64,000 nt of DNA. It comes from a virus. Its lineage: Duplodnaviria; Caudoviricetes. Positions 5,677 through 60,916 of the stretch are shown here, piece after piece. Made by a program: the position numbers and the translations under genes. Location of the stretch: positions 13,667 through 77,666 of the IMG/VR virus record IMGVR_UViG_2654588144_000016, one strand, 5' to 3'. Below the pieces are notes generated by a model. The model was not told where the DNA came from and did no database searches. It worked only from the letters and a program-made list of their open reading frames with translations. How positions within the stretch are numbered: position 1 is the first letter of the stretch; each line of letters starts with the position of its first letter.

Positions 5677-5787
5677 GATTTCACCTACCTTTTCTGCATA
5701 TAAAAAAAGGCGGGTAACTGCTTTAGTCACTCGCCCTATTGGTTTATAGAAACTATGTTGTTAAAATAGGCAAATAGGCTGTAACAC

Positions 5788-12790: not shown

Positions 12791-14239
12791 CTACTCGGCT
12801 CCTCCTGTTTTAACTGTTTCAGTTTGCTTTGTTTTCAAAAGTTCCAATGCGTGTTCTTTTTCAGCTTCAATATCAAGTTGCTCCTGCGTCTTGAAAATGG
12901 TATCCATGTACGGCTTACTCTGCGTCCAAACCTTTTCCGGGTCACCAAACAGCCCGCATACAGTAATTGCAATCAGCGGATGAATCTTATTTTTCAGTAA
13001 ATAATCCAGCGCCTGTGCCTTAACCAGCATATTATCAGTAGAATTTCGAGTAATCTTCACATCGAAGTCTCTTACTGTCAGAGGAACATCATTTGTTGTT
13101 TGCTTAATGATATTCAAAACAATTCTGGCATGTTTTTTCTCTGCCTCAATGGTAAATGGTTCATCCAGTTTTGCCCGCTGTTCCGCAAAATCCCAACCAT
13201 TCCGCAGGTAAACCGCCTGTCCGGTATCTCCGCCGGTATTCTGCTGTCGGTCTGGCATACCCTCAACGACAAGTACTTGTCGGTACACATCATCCTTGGC
13301 TACTTGCGTCTGCTGCTGATTCAATTCAGCCGTCATGAGTTTTACATCTGATTGCATTCCCTGACCGGAATCTTTAACCTCCACAGCACCAAGGTCACAC
13401 ATCTGTAAAAACTTCTTCTCATCAATCTCACAGTTCTTAAAAAGCATAAATGCCTGAATAAACTGTTCAATACCATTCATGCGGTCGGACTGCATTTTGT
13501 TAATCTGGTCAAGAAGCGTAATCACAATTTCAATGTCGGAGAGCCTGTCCGGATTATTCGGATACTCCACAATCGGAATACCGCCAAAACCATTTATTCC
13601 AGAATCAGTTACTCTACCGCCCTTGATGATGAAATATAAATCATCCGAATAGCACTGATAATACTGTTCGTCTTTTTCATCCTTCAATACCTGAATGGAA
13701 AGCATATCTGAATCATCTTTGGCAGAATACACAACAATCGTATTCAGCGGATTCGGAATATGGATTCGGAACGGAACAATATCTGTTGACTTTCCTTTAA
13801 GCGTTACCTTGTAGGCAGTTCCAACGGCACTCTGAAAATTTCCAAGCTTGATATCTCTGGCCTGCCGATGAGCGTCCTTCATGTAATCATTTAGTTTATC
13901 CACGGCATCATTGATTTTTTTATCTGTTTTTCGGCTGACATACTGTATCGGCTCCCCATATGTCTGACTGGTGCTAAAGCGGACAATTTCAAGTGCATGG
14001 TTCTCGCAGGTCTTATTGTTGATGTCAGGCCGCACTTTCTTTTCACGGTAATGAATCGGCTGGTCACCCTTGTAGTAATCGTAAAGATACCGTATCGCCG
14101 GTCGATTGTAATTCAGAACTGAAATGGCCTTACCAACGACACCAACAACATTTTCTTTGGTAATTCTATCGACATTCGTATATGCAATTTTTCTACCAAA
14201 ATGTCCATGGCATAAATCAATAAAGCTATTACTGTTCAT
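12791..14239 (-). CDS. Portal protein (SPP1 gp6-like)
   Basis: YYKGDQPI, IPIVEYPNN and SDIE..I.L.D motifs. Confidence 0.92.
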   Translation of the reverse strand: MNSNSFIDLCHGHFGRKIAYTNVDRITKENVVGVVGKAISVLNYNRPAIRYLYDYYKGDQPIHYREKKVRPDINNKTCENHALEIVRFSTSQTYGEPIQYVSRKTDKKINDAVDKLNDYMKDAHRQARDIKLGNFQSAVGTAYKVTLKGKSTDIVPFRIHIPNPLNTIVVYSAKDDSDMLSIQVLKDEKDEQYYQCYSDDLYFIIKGGRVTDSGINGFGGIPIVEYPNNPDRLSDIEIVITLLDQINKMQSDRMNGIEQFIQAFMLFKNCEIDEKKFLQMCDLGAVEVKDSGQGMQSDVKLMTAELNQQQTQVAKDDVYRQVLVVEGMPDRQQNTGGDTGQAVYLRNGWDFAEQRAKLDEPFTIEAEKKHARIVLNIIKQTTNDVPLTVRDFDVKITRNSTDNMLVKAQALDYLLKNKIHPLIAITVCGLFGDPEKVWTQSKPYMDTIFKTQEQLDIEAEKEHALELLKTKQTETVKTGGAE

Positions 14240-15494: not shown

Positions 15495-18272
15495 TTAGAA
15501 TGGTCGTGGCGTAGGCTTTGCTGAAGCTACACCTCCGCCGCTTCTGTAAACAGCTAACATGGCTACCATATCGGGTGCATCATCGTGAGCATTCTTCGCC
15601 AACTGACTGTATGCGCACAACCACGACATGAATTGCCCATAATCAGATTTAACCTCATAACAATCTGGGTGCTTAAATAGCACATGCTGAATTACCCATG
15701 GACTATTGACGATAATCTTCGTTTCCTTATTGGTAGTTGTGAATCTCTTTTCAATGCTGGCTCGCCCACCTTTTTCTTTTACTTTTTCCTGAACCTTATC
15801 GCCGGTTCTGCTACCCTCTTTGTTGCTCTCAAATACCGCAATCTGAACATTGTTCCGAACCAGGCATTCTGCATTCAAGTCGTCAAGCAAATAGGGGTCA
15901 ATACTCTGGAATACCACATCATGAAGATAATAGTCCTCACCATACTGGTAAAACACACCCAGACAGTTGTAATCAGAACCCGTATCTTTCGTATCGCAGA
16001 ACGCCCATATAGCATCTGGCTCTTTTGGCGGCAGCTCCCCATAATACCGCCGTAACATATCTGGATTGTAGAGGATTCCCTCGCGTTCTACGGGTTCATT
16101 CTTGTATAAACACTTATATGTAATATCATCCAGCGACTTTTCGATATCTTCAAAATACTCCACATCGAATCCAACGCCATAATCATAATCAAAATTGCTT
16201 TCCCCTGTTGCCGGGTCAATATCGGGCACTGAAATGAAACGGCAACGCTTATTATTCTGGTAGATGGTTTTTATGCGCCCAATCACATCCCATACAGACC
16301 ATCTAGTCGCAATATGTAGTTCCTTGCAGGTCCTCCCACGTTTTCCTTTTTTCTTTCGGGTTTTTAAATCTGTACTATACATCGTCCAGAGTTTATCCAG
16401 ACGTATTTTAGACAATGCCATCTCGATTCCAGAACAAAGGTCATCGCAATACAAAATCCCCTCACATCGGGTAACGCCTGTTTGGGAAGCCCCCAACGCT
16501 CTGCAGGTCAATGTCTTAAAAGGCTTGAACTTTCCAAGGTTAATTTCCTGCTCATTTGCATTGTTGCTTTCCACTTCAACATCCGGGAATATTTCTCTCC
16601 ATGTGTATTCTGGTATCTGCCCAGGCTTCAAACCAATTCCAATGATATTGCAAACAACTTGATAAACCATTCTGGTAACATGGCCACTGTGAGATGAGAA
16701 CAGATTACACAAATCCGGGAACCATCCCATGAAACCGGACATGAACATTTCTCCAAGTGTAGTGTTATGAGTGATAACATATCCATCAGTAATATATAAA
16801 TGAGATTCATCATCCACCATAATGCATTGGCATTCCTCTTCACCTACATACGCTATATTTCTTATGAATCGTTTTATTTTTTTTCTTTTCGGGCAATACA
16901 AAATCTTTTTTCGTTCTAAAGAAAAAATCTTCTCACTTTCACTCGAAAATTGAATAAGTATTCGATAACATAGTTTTCCTTCTCTTTTTTCTCCCTTATA
17001 GAGATAGCAACTCTTTTTTGTTCCTTTGCTTGCATATCCTCCCAATGAGTGAACCAATTCTACAACGTCATTAGCAAGTTTCTCCGATACTGTATAATAC
17101 TCTGCATGGTTTTCTTGAGCACATCCATCTGTGTCAAGCAATCCTCTTAGCAAATCAAGTCTCTGTTTATATGACGCTGTCAAATATTCTTCTGGTATGA
17201 ATTTGTGGTCGCTTGTTTTTCCATACAGCCCTAACCTTTCTAATTCCCTACGAAAATGGCACTTTGTATATCTTCCCCTACTATCTCTCTTTGAATATCC
17301 CTCTACAATACGGTACGAAATATCATCAATTAGATTTAACGAATAGCCATCCGGCAATAAATCTTTGATTCTATTTAAGATTTCCTTATCTATATTTGTA
17401 ATATTTATAGAACCTCCAGACAGCGCACCACCTCCTATAAGAGCACCCAAAACATAGGGAGATATTAAAAACTCCTTCTCTTTAAAATCAATTTTAGGCA
17501 CATAATCAACAGAATAGTTCACGCGCTTTCCATGCTCTACATAAACATTATTAATCATGTCCCTCAATTCAATAACTCTATACCTACCGTTTTCCCCATA
17601 GCGTTTTTTGTTTCGGTCTTCCCTTGTCTGAACTTTCCACAAATGTTCGTCAGAACAACGCACCTTTGTACCATCATCAAAAGTTATCTCATAAACCTTT
17701 TTCTTTCCCTGCGGATACACCCCAACAACCTTGCATACATTCCCAGTGCCAGAAATTACTTCCTGACCAATTTTTACATCACCCATTCGCATGAACCCAT
17801 CTGGTGTAAGAACTTTGGAATACAGTGGTTGCGCTTTCCCGCTCCCAGGTACGGTAGATATGCTCAAAATATCTATTTCATCATCAATCAAATCCTGTAA
17901 CGCTTGCGTGAAACCCATTTTCAGGAATTGCTTGCGGCGTGGCTCATAAAATCTATCCTCCGGGTCCCGATTCTTCTCCAGATAAATCAAGTAGCTGTCC
18001 ACCACACGATTTCTGGCTTCAAACAGCATAGTATCCCAGTACAACTTGTCCCATTGAGGGTCAAGTGTCTGCTGTAAGCGTTGTAACGACCAACGCTTAA
18101 TAAATCCTGAATAGGAAAACACATATTTTCGTTCATCTGCACCCAAATCCGGGTTATCCTGCATCGTATATTGAAGTTCGGACAGAAGAAGTTGCAAAAT
18201 GTCCAAAGATGGCGGCTCTGTAATCTGCCGCTTTAATTTTTTGATTAATTTCCGGTGTTCCTGGAAATTCAT
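15495..18272 (-). CDS. terL: Terminase large subunit with intein
   Basis: Walker A PGSGK/T split by intein, Walker B LYCDD, ATRW, nuclease HDDAPD; start ATG 18272 with AAGGAGG. Confidence 0.93.
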   Translation of the reverse strand: MNFQEHRKLIKKLKRQITEPPSLDILQLLLSELQYTMQDNPDLGADERKYVFSYSGFIKRWSLQRLQQTLDPQWDKLYWDTMLFEARNRVVDSYLIYLEKNRDPEDRFYEPRRKQFLKMGFTQALQDLIDDEIDILSISTVPGSGKAQPLYSKVLTPDGFMRMGDVKIGQEVISGTGNVCKVVGVYPQGKKKVYEITFDDGTKVRCSDEHLWKVQTREDRNKKRYGENGRYRVIELRDMINNVYVEHGKRVNYSVDYVPKIDFKEKEFLISPYVLGALIGGGALSGGSINITNIDKEILNRIKDLLPDGYSLNLIDDISYRIVEGYSKRDSRGRYTKCHFRRELERLGLYGKTSDHKFIPEEYLTASYKQRLDLLRGLLDTDGCAQENHAEYYTVSEKLANDVVELVHSLGGYASKGTKKSCYLYKGEKREGKLCYRILIQFSSESEKIFSLERKKILYCPKRKKIKRFIRNIAYVGEEECQCIMVDDESHLYITDGYVITHNTTLGEMFMSGFMGWFPDLCNLFSSHSGHVTRMVYQVVCNIIGIGLKPGQIPEYTWREIFPDVEVESNNANEQEINLGKFKPFKTLTCRALGASQTGVTRCEGILYCDDLCSGIEMALSKIRLDKLWTMYSTDLKTRKKKGKRGRTCKELHIATRWSVWDVIGRIKTIYQNNKRCRFISVPDIDPATGESNFDYDYGVGFDVEYFEDIEKSLDDITYKCLYKNEPVEREGILYNPDMLRRYYGELPPKEPDAIWAFCDTKDTGSDYNCLGVFYQYGEDYYLHDVVFQSIDPYLLDDLNAECLVRNNVQIAVFESNKEGSRTGDKVQEKVKEKGGRASIEKRFTTTNKETKIIVNSPWVIQHVLFKHPDCYEVKSDYGQFMSWLCAYSQLAKNAHDDAPDMVAMLAVYRSGGGVASAKPTPRPF
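16764..17834 (-). mobile_element. Class 3 intein (357 aa) with LAGLIDADG homing endonuclease domain
   Basis: Starts Ala (AQPLYSKV), ends THN/T; W in block B, C in block F, T in block G; LLRGLLDTDG. Confidence 0.88.
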
Positions 18273-18353
18273 AAGAAAAGCCTCCTTCCTCTGTTTATTT
18301 CGCAAAGGTCGAAGGCTCACTAGGCACTGGTTTAAATCGACATAATTTTTAAC

Positions 18354-21546: not shown

Positions 21547-22464
21547 TCAATAATAATCTGACTTGTAAGCAAGCCTTTGTATTATTCCCTCCGTTGCAAA
21601 ATGTGGTAAATGCCAATCTATATTTTTTCCATAGTTTACAGTAAAATGCTTATCAATCAAAGAATAATACCCATTATCAAACGAAATTAGGTCCTCGAAA
21701 TCTTTACTTCCTTCAACAAGCTTTTCGATAACCTTAATCAGCGTTTGGTCTGACATTCTTGGGTGAAATCCTCCTGTATGCTCGTGATATTTGTCAAAAT
21801 AATAACTGATGGTATTTATTATGTTCTCTACTACACTATCATCATCGTAAAATAATTTATCTCGACACAACCTGATTGTTCTTGTAAGCACTTCGCCTTT
21901 TACGTCTTTTCCATCATTGTGGAACACATCGTCCTTCGCACCGATTCTATCGGTCGGAGTATTCGCTCCTCCTTTTTCTTTAGAAAAAGAATTTAGTGTA
22001 CTCTTTGGTGTATTCTCTGTATAGTACTCTCTGGTATTGGTTGGTTCATCTTGATTTGCTCGAATGTCGCAAAATGATACGTCCGTCGTATCATTTTGCG
22101 ACATTCGATTGTTCATCATAGATTCCTCAAGTTTTTTATAATCTATCGAATACCATTTTGTCTTATCAAACGAATATGTATTATGATTTGCGGAAATTAC
22201 ATATCCGTCCTTTTCTAATTTTGCAAAAATCCGTTTAATTGTTGGAATCGACCAAAAAGGAAAATTATCTCTTTGCCAATCCTCATATGTATTAAACGTC
22301 CAGTATCTTCCATCAATAAAATTCTTTCCGCTCCGCTCATTAAACTCCAACCAGTATTCAATCTGGTTGAGAACAATGGCTTCATTAAGCCCAACTAACA
22401 TAGCCAATTCTTGGCGAATGTTGAGCATTCTATCTTTATTTATAAATAAACTTCTTGCTGTCAT
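21547..22464 (-). CDS. Replication-initiator-like winged-helix protein
   Basis: GLNEAIVLNQIEYW, FPFWS..TIKR, DKTKWYSIDY motifs. Confidence 0.75.
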   Translation of the reverse strand: MTARSLFINKDRMLNIRQELAMLVGLNEAIVLNQIEYWLEFNERSGKNFIDGRYWTFNTYEDWQRDNFPFWSIPTIKRIFAKLEKDGYVISANHNTYSFDKTKWYSIDYKKLEESMMNNRMSQNDTTDVSFCDIRANQDEPTNTREYYTENTPKSTLNSFSKEKGGANTPTDRIGAKDDVFHNDGKDVKGEVLTRTIRLCRDKLFYDDDSVVENIINTISYYFDKYHEHTGGFHPRMSDQTLIKVIEKLVEGSKDFEDLISFDNGYYSLIDKHFTVNYGKNIDWHLPHFATEGIIQRLAYKSDYY

Positions 22465-22565: not shown

Positions 22566-22637
22566 TTGGGCTAGTTGGATTCGAACCAACGAATACAGGA
22601 GTCAAAGTCCTGTGCCTTACCGCTTGGCGATAGCCCA
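22566..22637 (-). tRNA. tRNA-Gln (TTG)
   Basis: Cloverleaf TGGGCTA..., anticodon loop CTTTGAC, T-loop TTCGAAT. Confidence 0.93.
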
Positions 22638-22642
22638 TAAAT

Positions 22643-22951
22643 CTATGCTTCTTCTACTTGTCCAAAAACTTCACAATATCGCTTAACATCAGTAAATCCA
22701 AGAATCTCTTTTGCTTTTTCTACTGATTCCGTTCTAATATCAGAGTAAGTAGTAATTATATGACCATCTCCAAATCCATCTTGATAATTTTCAAATTCAC
22801 ATTTTGCCGAAAAGAAGTTCTGTCTAAAAGTCATAAAATATTTTCTACCATTTTGTTCACCAATTACTTCCGCATTATTTGTTCTATAAAGTTTTCCACA
22901 AATAATTGCAGAAGAATGATTGGTTTCTCTAATAAATCTCATATTACACAC
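22643..22951 (-). CDS. Hypothetical protein between tRNAs
   Basis: ORF with RBS. Confidence 0.6.
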
Positions 22952-22981
22952 ACCTTTACGATTAATAAACTTTTACTACAA

Positions 22982-23055
22982 TGGACGCTCTGGGCATCGA
23001 ACCCAGGAATCTTCCGGTTATGAGCCGGATGCATTAACCACTTTGCTAAGCGTCC
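22982..23055 (-). tRNA. tRNA with CAT anticodon (Ile2-like, or Met)
   Basis: GGACGCT acceptor, CCGG-CTCATAA-CCGG arm resembles Firmicute tRNA-Ile2. Confidence 0.85.
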
Positions 23056-23218
23056 TAAGCACGACCCGCTTAGATTATCACACCGTCTACTATCCAGTTC
23101 CTCTGGTTTCGCAAGCATACTCGTGCACTAATATGCTCCGGTAGTTTTCAGCGGGCATTATCATTCTTTGTGAGGCGTTGTGCGTACTCTCACATCAGCC
23201 GGGAGCGACCCGGCAACA

Positions 23219-23318
23219 TGGGGAGTATAAGAATCGAACCTATGTCTCTGGTGGTATCGATTTTTATGTTTACGATTATTCTGCTTTCCCCAGTGTCTTA
23301 CCACTTGACTAACTTCCC
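23219..23318 (-). ncRNA. tRNA-like RNA with a ~35-nt insert in place of the anticodon loop
   Basis: Acceptor GGGAAGT/ACTCCCC, D arm GTC-AAGTGGTAA-GAC, T arm ATAGG-TTCGATT-CTTAT. Confidence 0.65.
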
Positions 23319-23433
23319 AGGCTCATCCGTCCCCTGTATAGCCCCAAAGAACGGACAATGTTTATCAGACATTCGCTCTTTCCCCTATTGGGCGGGCATG
23401 TGAACCTTCGCTACTCGGCTATGAAGAGCAAAA

Positions 23434-23551
23434 TTCTGCATAACAGAATCGAACTGTGCTTACCCCAACGCCTGACTTTTGAAATGTACTCTGGTTGCGC
23501 TCACGCCATTTCCATTACAAAAGCGAGTGGATTTGAACCACATATGCAGAA
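23434..23551 (-). ncRNA. Structured RNA with two T-arm motifs
   Basis: Closing stem TTCTGCATA/TATGCAGAA enclosing GTGG-TTCAAAT-CCAC and ACAG-TTCGATT-CTGT. Confidence 0.55.
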
Positions 23552-23569
23552 CTCGTATCGTCATACGAA

Positions 23570-23642
23570 TGGGAAGTATAGGTTCCGACCCTATCTCTCC
23601 TGCTCTTCAGGCAGGCGCTTTCACCAGATTAGCTTACTTCCC
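23570..23642 (-). tRNA. tRNA-Phe (GAA), atypical T-loop
   Basis: CCTGC-CTGAAGA-GCAGG arm; T-loop GTCGGAA. Confidence 0.75.
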
Positions 23643-23789
23643 AGTATAAATCCCCCTTGTTCCGTACAAGGACGAAATTTTATTAACTTCCGTTGTAAAC
23701 TCCATTTTCTGGAATCAATGGGAAACCTTGTTTCGCTACCGTTTATCGCAGAGTCGTTTGCAAACAAGAAAAGGTCAACACATCTCTCA

Positions 23790-23873
23790 TGGGAAGAACT
23801 GGATTTGAACCAGCAGAACCCGAAGGTACCAGATTTACAGTCTGGCCCGCTACCAATTACGGTATATCTTCCC
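23790..23873 (-). tRNA. tRNA-Tyr (GTA)
   Basis: CCAGA-CTGTAAA-TCTGG arm, long variable arm, T-loop TTCAAAT. Confidence 0.9.
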
Positions 23874-23874
23874 T

Positions 23875-24493
23875 CAACGGGCATGCGCCCGTTAGCAACA
23901 TCTTTATCGTGCATATGCTTTACACTATCCGGTTTGCAGCCTTTCACCGGCAACTCTTTTATCCAGCTACCTCGCAAAACTGGACGGACAATTTCTTCTC
24001 ACCCGCAGGCTTTTCCCCTTGCCTTATCGGTTCACATGCAAAATTGCCACTGGTGTTTTAGGGAAAATCTTAGCAAGGTTTTTACTAGAACCGCTCTCAC
24101 GGTTCCGCTACTTTTTCTCCATCATGGTAGATGGGAAAACACATTCCTTGAAACTCCCCAGACACGCTTTGGCGCCGATTATGTACTCCAGAATGTTATC
24201 AGCAACTCAAATCCGTCCGCATCGGCGTTCCCGTACACTAGCCAAATTTGGTGACTGAGTAAATGCTGATAAGTTTTTCTACGGCTTATACGGGGGCCGT
24301 AGCATTTGGAAGATTGGAAAGCCTACCTATCTCTCCTGCAGCAGTTAGCTCATGCTTGCCAAGGCCGGTTTATATGGCTTAACCTGCTGCCATGTCTTGG
24401 AACTCCCATACAGGTGACACGTCTGCCAACTATTATCCGACTGCCTCAAACAGGAAGCAGCCTGACCATATACTGCATGGTAAAAACGTTCCA
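23875..24493 (-). ncRNA. Candidate large structured ncRNA between tRNA-Thr and tRNA-Tyr
   Basis: No credible ORF; at least ten hairpins and a pseudoknot-type pairing. Confidence 0.45.
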
Positions 24494-24566
24494 AGCTATC
24501 AACCGGATTCGAACCGACAACCTATCGCTTACAGGGCGATTGCTCTACCATTTGAGCTATGACAGC
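24494..24566 (-). tRNA. tRNA-Thr (TGT), C at position 33
   Basis: GCTGTCA acceptor, ATCGC-CCTGTAA-GCGAT arm, TTCGAAT. Confidence 0.82.
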
Positions 24567-24779
24567 TACTACAAATACCAATGATAACCACTCATTGGCA
24601 TGGATACTCCCCTGCGTTTACCGTTCCAGACGGATTGCAACGCCCAGTTCTCTTGTGTATCCTTCCCAGGCTGTAAAACCTCACGGCGGTCGTAAGCCGC
24701 CTTAACAGCCTATTGGCTATGAGGTAGAGGTCAAGTATGAAAAAAATCAAATCCGCATATTCAGCACAAGTATGCGGAA

Positions 24780-24858
24780 TAGGGAGAACAGGAATCGAAC
24801 CTGTGACTTCGGAGTGTTTCGTCGGCTTCTCCGCACTCTACCACTGAGCCATCTCCCT
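24780..24858 (-). ncRNA. tRNA-like RNA with a 14-nt anticodon loop
   Basis: Perfect acceptor AGGGAGA/TCTCCCT, D and T arms; CGGAG-AAGCCGACGAAACA-CTCCG. Confidence 0.7.
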
Positions 24859-25182: not shown

Positions 25183-25935
25183 TTAATCCTCCAACCATTC
25201 GTTGTCGAGACAGATAAACCCAACCACTGCACCACCGGTCAATATAATCCAAATTATCCAAAACAGCACTATCGGAAAGCCAGAAGTCAAATACTCTACC
25301 GTTGATTCTATGTCCTGTCCAACGTAAAACGGTGAATCATCTTTCATGGCTCCGTCTCGCAAATCAGTATAGACTGTGCCAGTATATTTCGGATTACATC
25401 CATAATATTTGAATCTCACAAATCCAGATTCATTCATTGTGTCTATGTAATCCGTTCCCGGCATAGCCACTTTGGAATAATCCATTTCGATATCGCAAAA
25501 TTGGATTTTCTTACTATGGACTTCTTCACTTCCGGCATAATCCCATGACCAATATGTTTCTGTCCTTGTATGGGTTTTTCCGTTGAAATCCGTATATGTG
25601 ACCGTTCTGGTATGCATATTGTAATGCTCCTCAACCTTTTCCACGTACAGATATTCTCCACCAATTTCTGGATATGTGACTGTATCAATCGCCTCCAGTT
25701 CTCCATACACAAACGCATTACCAATACTGGTATTCATGCCATACCGAAACATCTCTGTTTCAGTTATCTTTGCCGCCTTGTAATACTCTGCGTTTTTGTC
25801 CATCTGGTGTTCTTCTATTTTCCCGGCAAACACGAATCCAAGAATCATCATCACCGCAATAATGGTAATACTGGCCAGAATCTCACGCATTGTTATCTCA
25901 TAACTTCCGAACCACCACGACTTTTTCATAATCAT
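25183..25935 (-). CDS. Membrane protein (N- and C-terminal TM helices), LemA partner
   Basis: Two hydrophobic segments; coupled to lemA. Confidence 0.75.
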   Translation of the reverse strand: MIMKKSWWFGSYEITMREILASITIIAVMMILGFVFAGKIEEHQMDKNAEYYKAAKITETEMFRYGMNTSIGNAFVYGELEAIDTVTYPEIGGEYLYVEKVEEHYNMHTRTVTYTDFNGKTHTRTETYWSWDYAGSEEVHSKKIQFCDIEMDYSKVAMPGTDYIDTMNESGFVRFKYYGCNPKYTGTVYTDLRDGAMKDDSPFYVGQDIESTVEYLTSGFPIVLFWIIWIILTGGAVVGFICLDNEWLED

Positions 25936-26474
25936 TCACCAAACAAATTCGTCGGCGCATCAACCGGAGCCTGATAGTCCAATCTCTGATAATCCAGCAC
26001 CTCATAACCTGTCCAAGACAGAAACTGTCTGGCCGGAAATCCTTTTACATACCGGTTATATGTACCTACCTGCTTGTTGTAGCTCTCTCGGTACTGGGCA
26101 ATCATGTTTTCCGTGGTAGCAAGCTCTGTCATGAGCTGTTTGTAATTCTCATTACTTTTCAGTTCTGGATACGCTTCTGCTACCGCTGTAATTGCAGTAG
26201 TCACATTCTCGATATCTCCGGTGCTTCCTCTGCCGGCCACAATCGCCTGTAACGTTTCCGCCTCATGCTTGTCATACTGCTTAATCGTATCCACAAGATT
26301 TGGTAGCAAGTCGATTCTGCGCTTCTCCTGCACCTTAATGTCAGACATGGAGGTTTCAATGGATTCCTCCAAGCCGATTGCCTTATTTCTGCTGCCCTGT
26401 ACGCCAAATACGCACGCTACTGCAATAAAAACAATTCCTACTGCCACAATGGCACCTATCTTCCATGTTTTTAT
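25932..26474 (-). CDS. lemA: LemA family protein
   Basis: RRIDLLPNLV and AEAYPELKSNENY motifs; RBS points to in-frame ATA at 26474 (GTG 26447 alternative). Confidence 0.85.
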   Translation of the reverse strand: MKTWKIGAIVAVGIVFIAVACVFGVQGSRNKAIGLEESIETSMSDIKVQEKRRIDLLPNLVDTIKQYDKHEAETLQAIVAGRGSTGDIENVTTAITAVAEAYPELKSNENYKQLMTELATTENMIAQYRESYNKQVGTYNRYVKGFPARQFLSWTGYEVLDYQRLDYQAPVDAPTNLFGE

Positions 26475-26945: not shown

Positions 26946-27191
26946 TTAATTACTTCCATCACCATCCTCCATTCCGATAATTTGGTTCAAGATTTCTTCC
27001 GCTAAATGCTTCGCCCCATATTCAGCGTGAATTTCGGATTCACCATCTCCAATATAATGCTCCTTTGGTTTTAAAACGCTGAAAATACTCGCCACAAAAC
27101 CATCGTACAAATCTCCCTGTTTCAAAAGCTCATTTCGGAGAATTTTGATAACTATCGGTATTGTAAAAAATGGCATCTTAACTGTAGACAT
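26946..27191 (-). CDS. Hypothetical protein
   Basis: ORF with GGAGG RBS. Confidence 0.65.
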   Translation of the reverse strand: MSTVKMPFFTIPIVIKILRNELLKQGDLYDGFVASIFSVLKPKEHYIGDGESEIHAEYGAKHLAEEILNQIIGMEDGDGSN

Positions 27192-27204
27192 ACGCTATTT
27201 CCTC

Positions 27205-27609
27205 CTACTGCAAGTCGTTTACGGAAAACACAATCCCCAAGCAATACGGTTCTCCATCCTCATACACCATGAATGTCTCATGTGGAATGTCAGTCTTGTA
27301 CGTCCATGGGATAACATTTCCGTCCTCATCCTTGGACGCCTTGTCGCACCATAACGCTTCAATGCAATTCGGGAAGTCTTTCTTATCGTCCTCGCCGTTA
27401 TAAACGCTCTCTTTCGAGAACCAGACCTTTCCACCATCGAAACAACCGCCCTCGTCACTCATGGCTCCCTCAAATTCCATCAAATCGTCTGAAGCGCCGG
27501 TGACAATTACCCAACCGTTATCTTTAGCTGTCTGGATTTCTTTTTTCGTAAACATATAAGAATCATATTCTTTACCATCAAGCTGCTGTGCAAATTCTTT
27601 TATTTTCAT
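27205..27609 (-). CDS. Conserved phage protein (GASDDLMEF family)
   Basis: GASDDL and WTYKTDIPHETF motifs common in phages. Confidence 0.75.
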   Translation of the reverse strand: MKIKEFAQQLDGKEYDSYMFTKKEIQTAKDNGWVIVTGASDDLMEFEGAMSDEGGCFDGGKVWFSKESVYNGEDDKKDFPNCIEALWCDKASKDEDGNVIPWTYKTDIPHETFMVYEDGEPYCLGIVFSVNDLQ

Positions 27610-27772
27610 AGGATTACTCGCCTTTCTTCACTTCATCAAAACAGCCGTCATAATACTCTGTTTCCAGACCGTAATTTTCGCTTTCCTCGTTATCACATAC
27701 CCACTCGCCATCTATACGTTTGTGGTGTTCGCAGTTGCCGCACATTACTCATCCCTCCACATTGTCAAATCT

Positions 27773-28099
27773 TCATTCATGTTCCAACTCCAATGTCACA
27801 TAATATCCGTTTCCCTTTATATGCTCAATGGTATACGTTCCCAGATTTCCATTGGCATTTATCTTAATCGTATCCCCAACTTTTGCATATTGGTCATATA
27901 CTGTTTTTCTTACAAAATGCTCCTCAAATACTTTATCCAAAATGAAAAGTAAAACACCCTCATAACTTATTGAAGCATAGCCATGCGGAACAGAATGATA
28001 TGGAGCAATCTTAAACTCTCCACCAACATTATTAAGCCTTAATCCATTCAAATTTAACGGCTTTACCTGTACCCATGATTCTCCCTCATTGCCATACAT
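27773..28099 (-). CDS. Hypothetical protein
   Basis: ORF with RBS. Confidence 0.6.
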   Translation of the reverse strand: MYGNEGESWVQVKPLNLNGLRLNNVGGEFKIAPYHSVPHGYASISYEGVLLFILDKVFEEHFVRKTVYDQYAKVGDTIKINANGNLGTYTIEHIKGNGYYVTLELEHE

Positions 28100-28314
28100 C
28101 GTTCATTCCTCCACAATTGCCAGTTCTTTGCTAAATCATCCATGAATCCTTTTTCAATACTAAAATTTTCGACCCCATCAATCATCACAGAATCTATGGC
28201 AAAAGTCCTGTCCCCGGCTTCACGCATCAATGCAAAAATCAGCTCCTTTACGTCATCCGGACTGTCACAGTCTGTATTGATTTTAATATTGATTTGCAAC
28301 TTTTTAATAGCCAT
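28063..28314 (-). CDS. Hypothetical protein
   Basis: ORF with RBS. Confidence 0.6.
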   Translation of the reverse strand: MAIKKLQINIKINTDCDSPDDVKELIFALMREAGDRTFAIDSVMIDGVENFSIEKGFMDDLAKNWQLWRNERCMAMRENHGYR

Positions 28315-28339
28315 ATTATGCCCTTTCTCTTACAAAGCC

Positions 28340-28606
28340 TTAATTTCCTTGCGCTTCCAGAACAGACTTTCTCGGACAGTAATAATTGGTAATCTGACCG
28401 CTCTTGCCCGCCGGAACTGCAACCAGAACACGTTCGTGGATACTGATATGCCTATCATATTTGACATGACTTGGTTTTACGTCATGCGGAAGAAGCAAAT
28501 CTGTATCCTTTTTTGCTGATACAATTGCTATAACCTTTCCCGTTTTTTTCTTATCGCTACCCTGCGCCTGGCTTGTCCATGTAACTTCTTTTCCAACTCC
28601 AATCAT
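28340..28606 (-). CDS. Hypothetical protein (SH3-like)
   Basis: VTWTSQA...GKVIAIV pattern; RBS GAGGAG. Confidence 0.65.
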   Translation of the reverse strand: MIGVGKEVTWTSQAQGSDKKKTGKVIAIVSAKKDTDLLLPHDVKPSHVKYDRHISIHERVLVAVPAGKSGQITNYYCPRKSVLEAQGN

Positions 28607-28898
28607 AATCAGTTCTCCTCACCTTCATTGTATTTAGGAAATCCCCTTGTACTGAATCCTTCTGACTTACAGATATACTGTTCTTGGTTACTATCCATAT
28701 GGGTATCCTCCTAGCTGGAAAGCCTTTTTATTTTTTTCGGAATTAAAGGGACTAACTGGCGCCGACATCGGCTTCCTACAGACCCCCTCCCGCCCCATTT
28801 GCATATGACGGTTGATTGGCTGAAATACTGCACAAATTCCAGTTCAAAAACTATGCATATTGCTGTTTCAAAGGCCATCATCACTTATATTCGTTTTC

Positions 28899-28932
28899 AA
28901 CTATTCGCTAAATATCAATTTCACGAATAGTT
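28899..28932. repeat. 34-bp loxP/dif-like palindrome, putative tyrosine recombinase site
   Basis: AACTATTCGCTAAA-TATCAA-TTTCACGAATAGTT: 14-bp arms with 2 mismatches and an asymmetric spacer. Confidence 0.65.
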
Positions 28933-29044
28933 ATGGTTGAAATCTGCACAAAATCTGTCAAAAATATTATGCACAATAACCAATACACTATAAATTGTGC
29001 CTATTGTATAACAGACACGCTGTATTGTCTGATAATATAGTAGT

Positions 29045-29719
29045 CTAATCCGGCAAATCATCCACGCTCCCAGGCAAGGATTCCATTTCTTTGGCCCTGG
29101 CTACTATCTCCTCGCGGCTATATGTAATGCCCGCTTTGCTTCCGTCTGCTCCCCTTGGCTGCCCCATATTCCATCCGTGCCGCCTGTTTAATGCTCCCAG
29201 TATTCCGACGGGATTTCTCTTCCCACCAATGAGCATGTTTGACAGACTTTCCTCGTTCTCCATGTTCAATTTTTTGTATATAACGGAACCTTTTGAACCT
29301 ACTCTCGTCTCATCCCTGCCCCAACTGTTAACCGTATCTGTATCTATACCAGTCAATTTACTAAACCCACTTATAGATACCTCTTTGTCATACTCATAAC
29401 ATAGAGTTATATATATATCACATACACAGTCTATTAAATCCAGATTATAGGCATTGTTTAATCTTGTATCTGTATATAACCTTTCACGGTTAACAGCAAA
29501 CAACTGTTTATTAATATATATAAGAGCAGCATTCCAGCGGCTCTGCGGCTCCTTACGCATATCCTTTATGCCTCTATTGTCGATGTACTCTTGGAGATAC
29601 ATAGATATATCATTTGCATAGACATCTATGGTATTACCGTCCCTATCTGTTATTTTGACCATGTTAATATTAATATCTGACATAACTGTATATCTCCTCT
29701 CTGGGGCTATGTAACCCAA
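29045..29719 (-). CDS. terS: Putative terminase small subunit
   Basis: SISGFSKLTGI HTH-like segment and VG.L..LN..HGW motif; first gene of the late arm; real start may be 29683. Confidence 0.6.
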   Translation of the reverse strand: MGYIAPERRYTVMSDININMVKITDRDGNTIDVYANDISMYLQEYIDNRGIKDMRKEPQSRWNAALIYINKQLFAVNRERLYTDTRLNNAYNLDLIDCVCDIYITLCYEYDKEVSISGFSKLTGIDTDTVNSWGRDETRVGSKGSVIYKKLNMENEESLSNMLIGGKRNPVGILGALNRRHGWNMGQPRGADGSKAGITYSREEIVARAKEMESLPGSVDDLPD

Positions 29720-30058
29720 TTATATATAATCCTTATCTATCCACATGGGAATATGTATATAATATATATCTATTCCGCTACACTGTATTTGTATTAACTA
29801 TAAGGCAGACCCATTGAAGCATTGCGGCCTCCTCTCTGCCTGGTTAAGGTAAATAAAAAAAAGGCCCCAACGCTTAGACAGACTGCTACATCCGTCTATA
29901 ACGTCAAGGCCCCGTGGACTGGTTATACTTCGCCGCGCATCTGCTGGCCGGCGGTCTGCATGTGTGGTCAAGGCATCCGAGACACTAGCACACATACACG
30001 CTATATATAATTATCAATTGGTTATACTCTAGCAGATTTTATAATATCTGTCAATAGC

Positions 30059-30421
30059 CTATTTAAGCGCATCCAAAAAAACGCCTAAATCAGTATAATC
30101 CCATTCCCCAGTGACATCTACAACACGGTATGCCTGGGAATAATCCACATTGCTCAAATCTCCGTCAAAATCATCGTCATCTGGCAAGTCAAAATAAAAT
30201 TTTAGCAGACGATTGTTATCTGTGATGCCGTATTGATAAAACTCGTCCATATCAAAACACTCATCAGTGCCAACCATATAAATTTTATAACTTACGCCAT
30301 CAACCAAAACGGTAGTGTACCGACAATCGCTATCTAACAGTTCGGCCTCGGTCACATTCCGACGCCCCTCAATAATTTCCAATGCCGCTTTGCGCAGTTC
30401 TTTATTTTTATTTTTATCCAT
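30059..30421 (-). CDS. Small highly acidic protein
   Basis: Asp-rich 120 aa, AGGAGG RBS, operator-covered promoter. Confidence 0.7.
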   Translation of the reverse strand: MDKNKNKELRKAALEIIEGRRNVTEAELLDSDCRYTTVLVDGVSYKIYMVGTDECFDMDEFYQYGITDNNRLLKFYFDLPDDDDFDGDLSNVDYSQAYRVVDVTGEWDYTDLGVFLDALK

Positions 30422-30481
30422 TTTACTTACCTCCTATATGACTCCCTGATATCCTCTTTGTTGATACTCCAAGCATATCAC

Positions 30482-30884
30482 ATGTGCGTTATATTGTCAA
30501 TATTATATGTGCGTTATTTTAAGATTTTTTCTAACTCATCCAATTTACTTAATACTGTGTCACGGATAAAGGCGGAATTAGTTTTATTAAGATTAAGCGC
30601 CTCAATCCTTTCCTTTGTCCCATCAGGGAAAACAATATTTAATCTGTAGTTTCTTTTTTCGTATTCTCTCACGGCTTTTCTTTGCGAATCTGTTGTCTTT
30701 AACTCCTTATTTCCCATCATTCCACCGCCTTTGTCATATATGTGTCTTACCTAATTATATATTATGTGCGTTACATTGTCAATAAATATGTGCGTTATAC
30801 ACTTTGCACATTTTTCTGTCTATATATGTGCGTTATTTTGTTAGTTATTCCGGTATTGCACTTTGCTTATATGTGCGTTATAAT
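30482..30884. promoter_or_regulatory. Seven ATGTGCGTTA operator-like direct repeats over divergent promoters
   Basis: Copies at 30482, 30507, 30740 (variant), 30764, 30788, 30826, 30871; TTGCAC-17-TATAAT (+, 30856-30884) and TTGACA-16-TATAAT (-, 30754-30781). Confidence 0.8.
30514..30720 (-). CDS. Ribbon-helix-helix (Arc-like) repressor
   Basis: YRLNIVFPDGTKERIE...SAFIR motif; flanked by repeats. Confidence 0.7.
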   Translation of the reverse strand: MMGNKELKTTDSQRKAVREYEKRNYRLNIVFPDGTKERIEALNLNKTNSAFIRDTVLSKLDELEKILK

Positions 30885-30933
30885 TTAGGCATAACAAAAC
30901 AACAACACATCAAGCAAAAAGGAGATAAAAGCC

Positions 30934-31305
30934 ATGGTAAAAAACATCATCGATTTAATTGAGGCCAGCGGAGCCGAATATATAGGCATAAGACATTTGG
31001 CAGACGATGAGCATTACAACGTTGGAGATTACTGCCGTAACTCTTATGACTGGGATTATGAGCACGATTGCTCCACATACGAGACGGATGAGCCGCAAGA
31101 GCTTCCAGGCACGTGCGCATACAATACCAAGATACATTCCGGATGGGACGATCCGGATGAAATCAAGTCAAAGCTGGAAAAAGCCCTTAACGCATCCAAA
31201 GTATACTATGGCAATATTGTTATCATCGGCGGAGACCGTGTTACCTATGGTAATGACGAGGGCGAAATCATCATAGAGGATGCCGTTGTTATCGCAACTG
31301 TTTAA
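30934..31305 (+). CDS. Small acidic hypothetical protein
   Basis: First gene behind a strong promoter; AAGGAG RBS. Confidence 0.75.
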   Translation: MVKNIIDLIEASGAEYIGIRHLADDEHYNVGDYCRNSYDWDYEHDCSTYETDEPQELPGTCAYNTKIHSGWDDPDEIKSKLEKALNASKVYYGNIVIIGGDRVTYGNDEGEIIIEDAVVIATV

Positions 31306-31336: not shown

Positions 31337-32362
31337 ATGACAAAATATTTTAAAAATGTGAAATCCCTAGAGGATTTGAAAAACCAGTTTAAGGCCCTGG
31401 CCCGGAAGAATCACCCGGATGCTGGAGGAAACGCCGAAACCATGAAGGAAATCAACTGCGAATATGACGCGCTTTTCCCTATTTGGAAGGATCGTCACAA
31501 CACCGCAGAGCCGCAGAACCAGACCACCGAAACCGCGGACAGCACCCGCCGCCGGTTCTACACTGACTGGGGATGGGAAGGAAGCCGCTACAATTCCAGC
31601 ATGAGCACTACCGAAATTTCCAAAGCAATCAAAATCTATTGCAAAGAGAAATATCCAACATGGAAATTTTCAGTTACATCAAAATATTTTTCCGGCGGTT
31701 CCTCTATTGATATTTCCGTCATGGAAGCACCTGAACAGATTTTCGACCTTGCAGCCTGTCGCAAAGCATACGCTGAGCATCTGGAGAACGAAAAAATGGG
31801 CTACTATGGCGGCCGCGGTCTGGGAATGGACATAGAAAAGATGTTGACGGATGACAAAATGCACTGGCAGCTACACAGAATTAGTGACCATTACAAGGAA
31901 TATTTCACCGAATACGGTTTTTCGGTTCTGGAAGATGTTTATAAATTTATGCAGTCCTACAATTATGACGACAGCGACAGCATGACCGATTATTTCGCCT
32001 GCAATTTTTACAGCTCTTTTAACATCGGAAAATGGGACAAGGGTTTTAAAATCGTTCCCAAAACCGCCAGAATAAAGAATCAGGACAGTGCCCCAGCGAA
32101 AAAAGCGCCGAAGAAAAAACCAGCGGAGCCGGAAGCAATCGAACAGAAAACCGGCTACACCTACAAAATCACAAAAGGCGAGGACACACGGGACGGCTCC
32201 GAACTGTGGCTTGTACGAATTGAAGAAACGCTTGACCGTGAAGCATATAAGGCCGAAGCCGCCGCCATGAAAGAGCGTGGTGGATATTACAGCAAATTTC
32301 GCAAGGCATTTATTTTTCGATTTGACCCCACCGAAATTTTGTCCGGTGGAAAGGCGGCATAA
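31337..32362 (+). CDS. J-domain plus LPD29-like domain protein
   Basis: HPD motif (KNHPDAGG); KFSV...GGSSIDI and SYNYDDSDSMTDYF motifs. Confidence 0.75.
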   Translation: MTKYFKNVKSLEDLKNQFKALARKNHPDAGGNAETMKEINCEYDALFPIWKDRHNTAEPQNQTTETADSTRRRFYTDWGWEGSRYNSSMSTTEISKAIKIYCKEKYPTWKFSVTSKYFSGGSSIDISVMEAPEQIFDLAACRKAYAEHLENEKMGYYGGRGLGMDIEKMLTDDKMHWQLHRISDHYKEYFTEYGFSVLEDVYKFMQSYNYDDSDSMTDYFACNFYSSFNIGKWDKGFKIVPKTARIKNQDSAPAKKAPKKKPAEPEAIEQKTGYTYKITKGEDTRDGSELWLVRIEETLDREAYKAEAAAMKERGGYYSKFRKAFIFRFDPTEILSGGKAA

Positions 32363-32554
32363 TAGGCTGCCTGGCGGCATTTGGGCTGGTTCGACTCCCG
32401 CCGCTGCTTTTTCATTTCGCGGTCCCCAGGGACAAGGGGAGAAAGAAAACCTTGAAAACAATGTTAGATAAAGCAATTATCGCTATTGCCATCGGAGCAC
32501 ACCGTCGACACGGGCCAGACGGTTGGAAAATGGCAATTGTGAAATTGCCGCAAG

Positions 32555-33085: not shown

Positions 33086-33881
33086 GCACTTGCGGCGGCC
33101 CCGTACCCGTCTACAAGCCAACGCAAGCCGGTAACCCAAAGACACCAACCACGCCCCGGTGATGTAATCCGGCGCTTAACGGTTGCGCGATAGCATCCAG
33201 CACACAGGCAATACACCACCCTACAAGCTACGGGACGGGACGCAGACGGGAGGCGTATTCCCTGAGGGCAAAAATCAAAAATGAGAGGAGGAGCCGACCA
33301 TGAGTAACCGCTCACGTAGTCCGCCGACACATCAAAACAGTCCTCCCACGGTATTCAGTCCGTCAGCCGTCAGCCGGTACGGGGACTTTTGCACGTTTGC
33401 AACCGCATATTTAGCCGCGTAGCCATTTTATGCATTTGTGGCATATTGCAAAGGTAGCGCCTATAAAGTCCCATAGCGGGGCTTGTGGTGCGTGAAACCG
33501 ATATTTTAGGATTGTATGTTATCGCCGATTGTGGTATTATACGCTTATAGTAGATATTGTGTGCGCCGGTATGATAAACTACGCCAGTTTGGACAATCTT
33601 CTTTCAAACTGACATAATGCCGCCTGGAAGGCAAGGTATGTTCCTAAACAGTTTTATCAAAATCCAAAGCAAATCCGATGCAAATTCAAAATCAACTTTT
33701 CGTGATTTCACCAATCACCAAAATTTAAAAATTCTCCGAAAAATATTTTTGACATTCTTCTATCAGATCTCCTGCTCCCGGGGGGTATCAAAAAACGTTA
33801 CCTTGTTTGCATATTTTCAATTTTCCATTGTATCAACTCAATCTGTTCCAGATATTTTTTTGCTGTCAAACCAAAGCCCCC

Positions 33882-34916
33882 CTATCCAACATAACGGGCA
33901 TGAGCTTGTCGTACCGTTTCTTTGCTTATTTTTGCATAGCACTTAAGTGTTGTATCAACTTTTTCATGACCAAGCACTTCCTTTACCATCTCAATTGGTG
34001 CGCCCTTATTAATCATATCTGTTCCTACTGTACGCCTAAAAACATGAGGTGTAATTCTAACACCATCTAAGTCCGCATCACGTTCTTTTATTTGATTAAG
34101 AATATTTCGTACTGTCTTGTCCCCTATGCGGCTTTGAGGCCTATGTGGTGATACAAACAACGCTGGGTTATCATCATTACGGCTGTCGATATATCTCCAA
34201 AGATGCAATGCCACTTGTCCATTTAAACATACTTGCCGTTCTTTTCTTCCCTTTCCATAAACAACAGCAGTTTTACGATGAAAGTCCACATCTGCAATAT
34301 CCATTCCGCATAGCTCAGATACCCTTATGCCTGTTACATATAACATATCACATAATGCCAACTCAAATTCATTTTCACAAGCGCATCTTACCATTTCGCG
34401 TTGTTCTGGCTGCAATGTCGAGCCTATTCTATATTCCACCCGCGTTTCTTTTAATTTCTTAGCTGGATTATTTGGCAACAGGCCCTCTGTATACAGAAAA
34501 GAGAAGAAACTACGTATTGATATAAGTTTACTATTATAGGTCCTATCCTTCCATTTCCGCACTACTTTCCCATATCCAAGATATCCTTTTAAATCCTGGT
34601 ATGTAATCTCTGTAACATTTTTATTTATATGTGCCAACATATTTTTTAAATTGTATTTATAATTATTTATACTACCATCAGTGCACCCATCTAATTTCAT
34701 CTGAAACAAATAAGCGTTAAGGTATTCCACTGACCTATATATCTCATTGGAAAGAGCCGTTTCTTCTGTGAAAAACTGAAAACCAGATAGGCACATATTA
34801 AGTATCTGTTTTACTTCATTGAGTCGTTCCTGTTCTTCGATGACATCTACAATATTATCCATCACACGCCTGACAACATCATCCATACTTACCTGTTCTG
34901 CCATATATTTCCACAC
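33882..34916 (-). CDS. Tyrosine recombinase (XerC/D-like)
   Basis: Intact R (TGIRVSE), K (GKGRKER), HxxR (HVFRR), H (LGHE), Y (CYAK). Confidence 0.93.
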   Translation of the reverse strand: MWKYMAEQVSMDDVVRRVMDNIVDVIEEQERLNEVKQILNMCLSGFQFFTEETALSNEIYRSVEYLNAYLFQMKLDGCTDGSINNYKYNLKNMLAHINKNVTEITYQDLKGYLGYGKVVRKWKDRTYNSKLISIRSFFSFLYTEGLLPNNPAKKLKETRVEYRIGSTLQPEQREMVRCACENEFELALCDMLYVTGIRVSELCGMDIADVDFHRKTAVVYGKGRKERQVCLNGQVALHLWRYIDSRNDDNPALFVSPHRPQSRIGDKTVRNILNQIKERDADLDGVRITPHVFRRTVGTDMINKGAPIEMVKEVLGHEKVDTTLKCYAKISKETVRQAHARYVG

Positions 34917-59650: not shown

Positions 59651-59783
59651 AAAGTGTTGTAATAATAAAAATTGGGATTATATTCCATTGATTTATTTTT
59701 ATTACCTCCTAATATATAAGTGTAAGGTTTCAGTACCCAACAGCCAGTTAGGTATCATCTTCTTTCACCTCGTTTCTATTTGT

Positions 59784-59875
59784 TTGTTAAGGACATTATA
59801 TACCATTATTTTGTCCTTGTCAATCAAATATTTCACATTTTTGTCCTTTACAAGCATTTTTATTTATGGTATAAT
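59784..59875. promoter_or_regulatory. Lysis-lysogeny switch: divergent promoters with three operators
   Basis: TGTCCTTnnCAA at 59784 (-), 59811, 59841; TTGACA-17-TATAAT (-) and TTTACA-17-TATAAT (+). Confidence 0.75.
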
Positions 59876-59902
59876 TTACTTGTACACGAAAGGAGAAAAA
59901 GC

Positions 59903-60283
59903 ATGAATATATATGAACGAATACGGTTTTTGCGCAAAGAGATTCTGCATAAGACACAAGAAGAATTTTCTGAATCCATTAAGATATCACGCTCAAATCT
60001 CGGAAATATAGAAACCGGAAAGGTTGCCGTTACAAATAGAGTAATATCTGATATCTGCAATTCGTTTCATATCAATGAAACTTGGCTTCGCACAGGTGAA
60101 GGCGGAGACGATAACATATTTACTCAAATATCTGCTGATGACAGATTTTCGCTTAATTTAGGAAAACTGAGCACAACTGAAAATGAATTTATAAGAAATG
60201 GCATAAACTTATTAGCAGAAACGGACCCAGAGAAATTGAAAATTTTAGAAAATTTCATGAAAGCATGGCTAGGAATAAAATGA
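59903..60283 (+). CDS. CI-like XRE HTH repressor
   Basis: TQEEFS...ISRSNLGNIETG, WLRTGEG; ATG 59903 with AAGGAG. Confidence 0.88.
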   Translation: MNIYERIRFLRKEILHKTQEEFSESIKISRSNLGNIETGKVAVTNRVISDICNSFHINETWLRTGEGGDDNIFTQISADDRFSLNLGKLSTTENEFIRNGINLLAETDPEKLKILENFMKAWLGIK

Positions 60284-60873: not shown

Positions 60874-60916
60874 GCATTAGACTATGAAAAATACTATTTC
60901 ATAAGGAGGCAACATC

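Follow-up and report, generated by a model that had tools for sequence, protein, structure and literature searches.

A dif-type palindrome beside a putative small terminase gene in tailed phages: a probable mimic of a chromosomal Xer site of gut Clostridia

Bacteriophage P1 closes its genome by means of Cre/loxP, a system in which the phage encodes the recombinase next to its target, a site with a 13-8-13 layout. Phages of the CTX-phi type integrate at dif through the Xer recombinases of their hosts, as integrative mobile elements exploiting Xer (IMEX). Plasmids and genomic islands are known to exploit host Xer, as are filamentous phages and certain non-tailed ones. [quoted passage not shown] Here we describe a 34-bp palindrome in a 64,000-nucleotide stretch of DNA, hereafter called the window, which comprises bases 13667-77666 of the 77,666-bp IMG/VR record IMGVR_UViG_2654588144_000016, a tailed phage (Caudoviricetes) classed as a provirus. 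The palindrome lies beside a probable small terminase gene (terS), and we consider it probable that it is a phage-borne copy, or mimic, of the dif-type site that gut Clostridia have on their chromosomes, and that it is worked by the host Xer enzyme.

On the + strand, positions 28899-28932 read AACTATTCGCTAAATATCAATTTCACGAATAGTT, and the palindrome as described in the first-pass annotation of the window reads on the opposite strand. A repeat search of the window returned arms of 15 nt each at 28899-28913 and 28918-28932 with a complementarity of 87%; alternatively, the arms can be described as 9 bp and perfect, or as 14 bp with two mismatches flanking an asymmetric 6-bp center, and in this last form the sequence and the repeat search bear out the original description. 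The window contains the pattern AACTATTCG-N10-22-CGAATAGTT a single time, none of 100 shuffles contained it, and palindromes of comparable grade were found at 10 places compared to 2.1 +/- 1.2 in 100 first-order shuffles. Since the arm pair is single in the window and missing from the shuffles, the palindrome is real and beyond chance. The 14-6-14 layout, whose center shows palindromy at chance level, corresponds to that of Cre/loxP-type sites; the comparison with loxP made earlier was apt in this respect, and the anatomy of the palindrome is, to judge from its bases, that of a simple tyrosine-recombinase core site with two inverted arms around a short asymmetric center. The site is located 113 bp past the stop codon of the open reading frame (ORF) at 29045-29719 on the minus strand, in agreement with the distance of about 110 bp from terS given before, for which the identity of the gene is a matter of family-level evidence. 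The whole 77.7-kb record holds one such site. Elsewhere in the window half-sites with at most one mismatch were at chance level (13 matches, 14.3 expected), and no full degenerate copies were found, the next-best stretch having 8 mismatches over 24 constrained positions and stretches with at most 8 mismatches to these positions numbering 4 compared to 3.7 expected.

The same site was found in clostridial chromosomes. When the genomes of GTDB species, one for each, were scanned with the 24-position pattern, at least 120 contigs were returned, and the counts over chromosomal and viral loci given in the following hold among the matches listed. The taxa included Lachnospiraceae, Christensenella (Christensenellaceae), Oscillospiraceae, Enterocloster, Hungatella, Oribacterium, Butyrivibrio, Limiplasma and others, and the sole non-clostridial match among those listed was a 2.2-kb contig of an Eggerthellaceae metagenome-assembled genome (MAG; L171). 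The flanks of the chromosomal sites were unrelated from genome to genome. The commonest neighbor was a tyrosine recombinase of about 357 aa, found by clustering in 58 of 120 loci at a median distance of 188 bp. By tblastn at 38% identity or more, an XerS-like gene was present in 73 of the 120 8-kb loci; in all 73 the site lies upstream of the 5' end of this gene, and in 40 it is within 400 bp. One host recombinase taken as an example matched Pfam Phage_integrase at 6.6e-31, and its best NCBIfam match was XerS (6.7e-54). Other chromosomal neighbors were genes for LexA, RNase HI, TtcA, D-Tyr-tRNA deacylase and a pseudouridine synthase. In nine of ten whole genomes exactly one copy with at most two mismatches was present, and the tenth contained one exact copy together with a 2-mismatch variant inside another, unrelated prophage. 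The variant in a Christensenella prophage (L292, G051:C1:1766200-1786199, site at 9989) has its two mismatches in one arm and a center unlike the chromosomal one, and lies between genes for a Terminase_6N/6C large terminase (TerL) and an SPP1-type portal protein.

When 40 kb on each side of the site were analyzed in four genomes, the GC skew changed from + to - at the site and long ORFs converged on it in each of the four, although the signal of the Limiplasma MAG was weak; moreover, on a 6.37-Mb Enterocloster contig the site was located at 49.8% of the length. A single copy, a position at the terminus and an adjoining Xer gene together make up the signature of a chromosomal dif that is served by an adjacent single Xer gene, and we read the chromosomal 34-bp sequence as the putative dif-type site of these hosts, part of a single-recombinase dimer-resolution module. 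A much looser core, TTCG-nn-AAA-n6-TTT-nn-CGAA, was found in 30 of 151 genomes of the class compared to about 34 in a reversed control and was thus non-specific by count, many of the matches looking dif-like. In the literature searched no description of the 34-bp clostridial site was found: the available parts of Kono 2011 (PMC3025954) and of a survey of cell division in Firmicutes (PMC8136486) do not mention it, and the 9-mer arms and the G-rich box described below appeared only in primers or unrelated sequence. In addition, the chromosomal loci L161, L187, L188, L201 and L208 were observed to carry a second full or partial dif-type site about 40-100 bp from the first; such doubled sites may be footprints of Xer-mobilized elements.

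A direct comparison of phage and host copies places the palindrome in the same site family as the terminus site of the hosts, as it has the same arms and follows the same position-specific rules. The composition of the half-sites is alike in both sets, with C or T at position 10, A or T and some G at position 11, AAA at positions 12-14, and C, G or some T and almost never A at position 15. Apart from the center, all differences between phage and host copies lie outside the core, in a third arm, flanking repeats and the G-rich box. The centers themselves rarely coincide: only two of 56 distinct 34-mers in the phage collection equaled any of 78 from hosts, both of them from loci without TerS, and in the one lysogen examined the prophage and chromosomal centers differ.

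The site also recurs in other phages. A scan of IMG/VR with AACTATTCG-N16-CGAATAGTT, in which the outer arms had to be exact and the inner 16 bases were free, returned at least 119 contigs, and together with loci that were reached through TerS a set of 137 site-bearing viral loci was obtained, to which at least three contigs contribute two loci each. Among 28 distinct oriented viral sites from the matches listed, A occupied positions 12, 13 and 14 in 27, 28 and 28 sites, respectively, and T occupied positions 21, 22 and 23 in 28, 28 and 25, while positions 10, 11, 24 and 25 were free; the center was likewise free and non-palindromic, and its first base (position 15) was never A. An ORF of at least 90 aa that ends within 500 bp upstream and is aimed at the site was present in 130 of the 137 loci, and in 107 of them an ORF of the TerS family ended within 300 bp upstream, the gap between TerS and site being 50-99 bp in 87 loci and 100-149 bp in 12. 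Wherever terS and terL are seen in one locus, terL lies downstream on the same strand, at a distance of 0.5-11 kb (10.7 kb in the window), and in the relatives a variable set of small genes fills the space between site and terL. More distant TerS relatives have variant arms, such as AACTTTTCG...CGAATAGAT and ATAGTTCG...CGAACTAT; a search for these variants in 401 genomes gave 4 matches compared to about 13 control genomes and was uninformative.

The gene that precedes the site in these phages is itself divergent. The candidate TerS of the window (212-224 aa) had no direct Pfam or PHROG match, and a profile was built from aligned ORFs of related loci whose ends lie immediately ahead of the site. 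The 22 members of this alignment (A1) are 14-51% identical to the window protein; six of them match Pfam GP3_package (best 7.7e-14) and eight match phrog_606, terminase small subunit. Compared with PDB 2ao9, a nonameric phage protein, the A1 profile reached only E=0.065. An AlphaFold (AF2) model of the window protein had a predicted local distance difference test (pLDDT) score of 78.8, and in a Foldseek search with this model nothing was found at E<=0.001, P22 gp3 (3p9a) standing at rank 17 with a probability of 0.87. Among cultured phages, tblastn with TerS gave Dulem virus 39 as the sole match (26.5% identity), and a megablast of 27000-31000 gave none. The ORF at 29045-29683 is, on this family-level evidence, probably a divergent TerS.

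In contrast to its linkage to terS, the site shows no linkage to any one phage recombinase. This was surveyed in 50 whole records, of which 45 reach a completeness of 90% or more and five have variant rather than exact sites. A PF00589 match was present in 39 of the 50, representing several kinds of tyrosine recombinase of 147-447 aa, while of the 11 records without a tyrosine recombinase seven carry a large serine recombinase and four carry neither. The tyrosine recombinase genes were often at the contig end, and in three circular records that were worked out they lay 7-12 kb from the site. The arms were identical across records whatever the recombinase type, and joint inheritance of the site with one recombinase gene, the co-occurrence that the first-pass annotation had proposed to look for in relatives, was not found. 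Since the site stays constant while the phage recombinases vary, and since it is a copy of host dif, the acting enzyme is most likely host Xer. The first-pass annotation had itself named a palindrome bound by host Xer and unlinked to the phage recombinase as the outcome that would tell against its own proposal, and the presence of the same site, single and at the terminus, next to a clostridial XerS-like gene points in this direction.

With the palindrome read as a mimic of host dif, dimers of the XerS-like host enzyme would bind both arms and carry out the strand exchange where the arms meet the 6-bp center. Exchange between two identical phage copies would cut replicative or recombinational multimers, which the RecT- and SbcC-like functions of these phages could generate, to monomer circles; an alternative benefit might be that a genome with terminal redundancy is closed once it has been injected. 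As matching centers are required for the exchange, recombination should take place between two phage copies but not between the copy of a prophage and the chromosomal dif. A role in circularization or dimer resolution is our leading idea of what the site may do. In its fullest form, which we regard as plausible but short of probable, the proposal is that temperate tailed phages of gut Clostridia built a dif mimic, with third arm and flanking repeats, into their packaging-start region, the single host Xer being co-opted either for cyclization or resolution that needs no phage recombinase or in the role of architectural partner to the terminase. If true, the Caudoviricetes would contain a novel class of elements that exploit Xer, and the finding would point to a so far undescribed dif/XerS-like module in Lachnospiraceae, Christensenellaceae and their relatives. 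Should the site work as proposed, it would offer a simple example, open to test, of a phage that leaves cyclization or multimer resolution to a housekeeping enzyme of its host. In a non-exhaustive search of the open-access literature no tailed-phage family with an exact host dif mimic fixed beside terS was found. As a candidate dimer-resolution site of major gut Clostridia, the 34-bp sequence could also aid in locating termini in MAGs and in predicting the hosts of uncultured gut phages.

Several observations weigh against reading the palindrome as a host-operated dif mimic. The window copy is a minority variant: it has T at position 15 on both arms, a base found in 17 of 156 host half-sites, and G at position 11 on one arm, and the third arm is absent from it. 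The host recombinase scored 183 bits compared to an XerS equivalog cut-off of 267, and is thus XerS-like rather than an XerS equivalog. The chromosomal sites that were compared come from clostridial species generally. Moreover, about half of the viral loci represent one lineage, 63 of the 107 TerS ORFs falling into a cluster at an identity of 70% or above, and the invariance of the arms is partly a matter of construction because the scans demanded exact arms. If the host enzyme depended on FtsK, this would limit its action on phage DNA. Finally, plain multimer resolution leaves the constant place of the site after terS unexplained.

This last point is the reason for which a packaging signal has been retained as an alternative, unlikely as we judge it to be. 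According to this explanation the site and its flanks are a terminase recognition region of the pac or cosB type, with Xer serving as a DNA-bending factor or the core being bound by the terminase itself, and with the G-rich box as the cut site. A precedent for an architectural host factor exists in lambda, where IHF serves cosB by bending the DNA. The flanks are indeed phage-specific. Around the window site a direct repeat (D1) is formed by 28828-28857 and 28944-28973, with an identity of 70% and a spacing of 116, and four motifs of the TTGTGC type are present. Three or more motifs of the ACAATT/AATTGT type within 100 bp of the site were found in 75 of 125 phage contexts compared to 0 of 114 host contexts, and a third arm, a direct repeat with at most one mismatch that abuts the palindrome, in 59 of 122 phage contexts compared to 0 of 120 from hosts. 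Likewise, a GGGG..GGGGTCT box within 200 bp of the site was present in 64 of 137 viral loci, about 110 bp downstream of the site, and in 0 of 120 genome loci. This box yielded no supported RNA structure (-1.89 kcal/mol, 4 pairs), and no Rfam family was found within 28300-29300 at E<=1; conserved as sequence rather than as an RNA fold, and specific to phages, it may be a candidate cut site of the terminase (cos/pac). The packaging explanation also gains from the position of the site, which remains 50-150 bp past terS across TerS proteins of down to 14% identity, from its uniqueness in each genome, and from the second, unrelated prophage with a dif-like site between terL and portal, a single case. 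However, the core obeys the rules of host dif exactly, which is more than recognition by a terminase alone would require, and the arms stay identical while TerS diverges widely. Under the dif-mimic reading, by analogy, the phage-only flanks may be comparable to the accessory sequences of plasmid Xer sites.

A further explanation, to which we give a low likelihood and which ranks behind the packaging signal, is a lysogeny of the IMEX type, in which the site would be a second attP and the circular phage genome would integrate into chromosomal dif through host Xer. The phage carries a dif mimic, as such an element would, four of the 45 near-complete records surveyed have neither a tyrosine nor a serine recombinase, and several bacterial genomes have the second partial or full site about 40-100 bp from dif mentioned above; in addition, according to the available text of PMC1914069, the chromosomal site of Lactococcus is a target at which a plasmid with difSL integrates. 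In contrast, the site is internal in provirus and linear records, with integrase genes at the contig ends, and the 77.7-kb record has a single site rather than being flanked by dif-type sites. A TerS-family ORF was found upstream of the site in only one of 120 chromosomal dif loci, a 2.2-kb contig, and 46 of the 50 surveyed records encode their own integrase, a tyrosine enzyme in 39 and a serine enzyme in 7. The rarity with which phage centers equal host centers argues in the same direction.

The first-pass annotation had proposed that the palindrome is the target of the phage's own recombinase at 33882-34916, site and enzyme forming a Cre/loxP-like pair, and that the junctions between gene cassettes of the window are degenerate products of the same enzyme, which we now consider very improbable. 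The enzyme is Xer-like and is encoded 5 kb from the site, the architecture of the site suits a tyrosine recombinase, and the three nearest relatives carry both enzyme and site. However, beyond these relatives the association is lost: tblastn with the window recombinase gave matches in 5 of 154 loci, three of them the nearest relatives and the other two at 27-28% identity, and in most phages with the site the integrases are of other tyrosine types or of the serine type, or are missing altogether, while the arms remain identical. The best NCBIfam match of the recombinase is of the XerA/integron-integrase type (2.5e-53), with XerS at only 7e-22, and it shares 24.9% identity with the host XerS-like protein, the enzyme whose gene adjoins the same site. 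Nor is a tyrosine recombinase needed to explain lysogeny, since the window phage has a serine recombinase at the record end that is likely the prophage integrase. The suggestion that the center of the palindrome is also the core of the cassette junctions did not hold either, since the 12-mer AAATTGATATTT, at up to two mismatches, has 27 matches in the window, where 23.7 would be expected, and a count of 27 is attained by 28 of 100 shuffles. The right flanks said to resemble the right arm (AGAGGA, AACGGA, ACGGGA) are Shine-Dalgarno sequences followed by ATG and accompany 5 of the 27 matches. With the core 12-mer at chance level, ribosome-binding sites as flanks and no degenerate copies of the site in the window, the junctions do not appear as products of the enzyme.

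It is equally improbable that the site is the operator of a transcription factor that controls genes situated downstream of terS, or that it is left over, without function, from a past exchange with a host chromosome: the site is intergenic, and a promoter-like TTGACT-16-TATAAT was read by eye further downstream in some relatives, but there is one site per genome without a regulon-like spread, the arms are 25 bp apart center to center, the host dif rules are matched exactly, and a remnant would hardly be conserved so strictly amid diverged flanks in more than 100 phages.

Features of the window around the dif-type site (positions refer to the window)
Feature	Position	Strand	Remarks
dif-type core site, 34 bp, 14-6-14	28899..28932	.	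AACTATTCG-nn-AAA-n6-TTT-nn-CGAATAGTT; center TATCAA on +, TTGATA on -
Probable divergent TerS homologue	29045..29683	-	ORF open to 29719 from TTG; likely start ATG at 29683
Upstream flanking repeat copy, TTGTGCA / ATTGTGCA motifs	28935..28980	-	direct repeat and motif counts
Downstream flanking repeat copy, TTTGTGCAGTATTTCA	28819..28865	-	direct repeat and motif counts
G-rich box GGGGCGGGAGGGGGTCT / GGGGnGGGGGTCT, then A-rich tract	28715..28800	-	about 110 bp past site; alignment of relatives
Xer-like tyrosine recombinase	33882..34916	-	Pfam Phage_integrase 4e-33
Large terminase with LAGLIDADG intein	15495..18320	-	10.6 kb downstream of site
Early genes: SbcC-like, RecT-like, DnaB-like helicase, methyltransferase	about 35-58 kb		
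Small genes	about 18.3-28.9 kb		
Seven tRNA genes	22566-24858	-	variable region between site and terL
DnaD-like gene	21547-22464		
Portal	12791-14239		
Major head protein	10384-11706		
Tape measure	1372-5730		
HTH_19/HTH_3 repressor-like gene	59780-60283	+	
TnpB (OrfB_IS605 / Cas12f-like)	61149-62288	+	
Large serine recombinase, cut by record end	62633-64000+	+	

Nearly all genes of the window lie on the minus strand, and the record is closed by a lysogeny-type module on the + strand (59780-64000) that comprises the repressor-like gene, TnpB and the serine recombinase. TerL has 941 aa and contains a LAGLIDADG homing-endonuclease, intein-like insert at about residues 375-460, while the TerL proteins of relatives without the insert have 544-595 aa; their class could be matched only weakly, to T7-type RNaseH-like or Terminase_6C families in 6 of 7 relatives (E 3.7e-7 to 2e-4). 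Accessory genes in the variable regions were noted for a LemA-family protein (25932-26447, minus strand) and, on the opposite strand, for a 'polyvalent protein' with an LPD29 / DnaJ-like domain (31337-32362, +). Two further palindromes were observed. One, at 22065-22103 within the DnaD-like replication gene, is perfect, with arms of at least 14 bp and 0 mismatches, and is a candidate origin element. The other, imperfect and reading AACTTTTCGTGATTTCACCAATCACCAAAATTT at 33694-33726 (+), lies about 160 bp past the 3' end of the gene for the tyrosine recombinase, within some 450 bp of sequence without long ORFs, and may be that recombinase's own site; it was considered as a relative of dif because it has AACTnTTCG in common with the site, and was rejected as one-mismatch half-sites are at chance level.

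Two observations were made in sequencing data. In an isolate run (X1) short contigs contained window segments (32407-32444, about 34066 and about 35136) between identical 25-27-nt sequences (ATCCACAAGGCCCTCGCGGGCCTCGAC-like), and these segments look like CRISPR spacers matching this phage. Logan contigs from three pig-gut metagenome runs break at 28897-28916, within the palindrome; these breaks were considered as DNA ends and rejected, the isolate contig being continuous there, and we read them as branching of the assembly graph at a sequence common to diverged phages.

The locus can finally be set against the systems described at the outset and a few others. Like P1 Cre/loxP, it combines a short inverted-repeat core and an asymmetric center with a temperate phage, and the job proposed for it is likewise cyclization or dimer resolution; it is unlike that system in its match to host dif, its 14-6-14 layout and phage recombinases that vary or are absent. 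The third direct arm beside an inverted pair recalls FRT of the yeast 2-micron plasmid, which involves an unrelated enzyme and organism, and the window copy is without this arm. Compared with IMEX, as far as the available part of the published account extends, it is again a mobile element with a dif-like site on which host Xer could act, but the carriers are tailed phages of 55-78 kb that mostly have integrases of their own, and the site is internal beside terS with a center unlike that of the host. With cer, psi and the Acinetobacter pdif sites, in the available portions of the reports (PMC11705084, PMC12907356), it shares a dif-like core with element-specific flanks on an extrachromosomal replicon; it differs from such plasmid multimer-resolution sites in that no plasmid functions were identified in the phages and that its flanks consist of AATTGT/TTGTGC repeats, third arm and G-rich box, and since there is one site per phage genome, modules in the style of pdif are not formed. 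Differences from XerS/difSL of streptococci and lactococci, taking the available text of that study as the measure, are the length of 34 rather than 31 bp, the perfectly symmetric 9-bp outer arms, hosts among the Clostridia, an enzyme below the equivalog cut-off, and a copy that is carried by a tailed phage. In its remaining properties the clostridial system is similar to XerS/difSL, with a recombinase of about 356-357 aa whose best NCBIfam match is XerS, and with a site that lies upstream of the gene, occurs once per chromosome at the terminus and consists of two inverted arms around a center of 6-8 bp.

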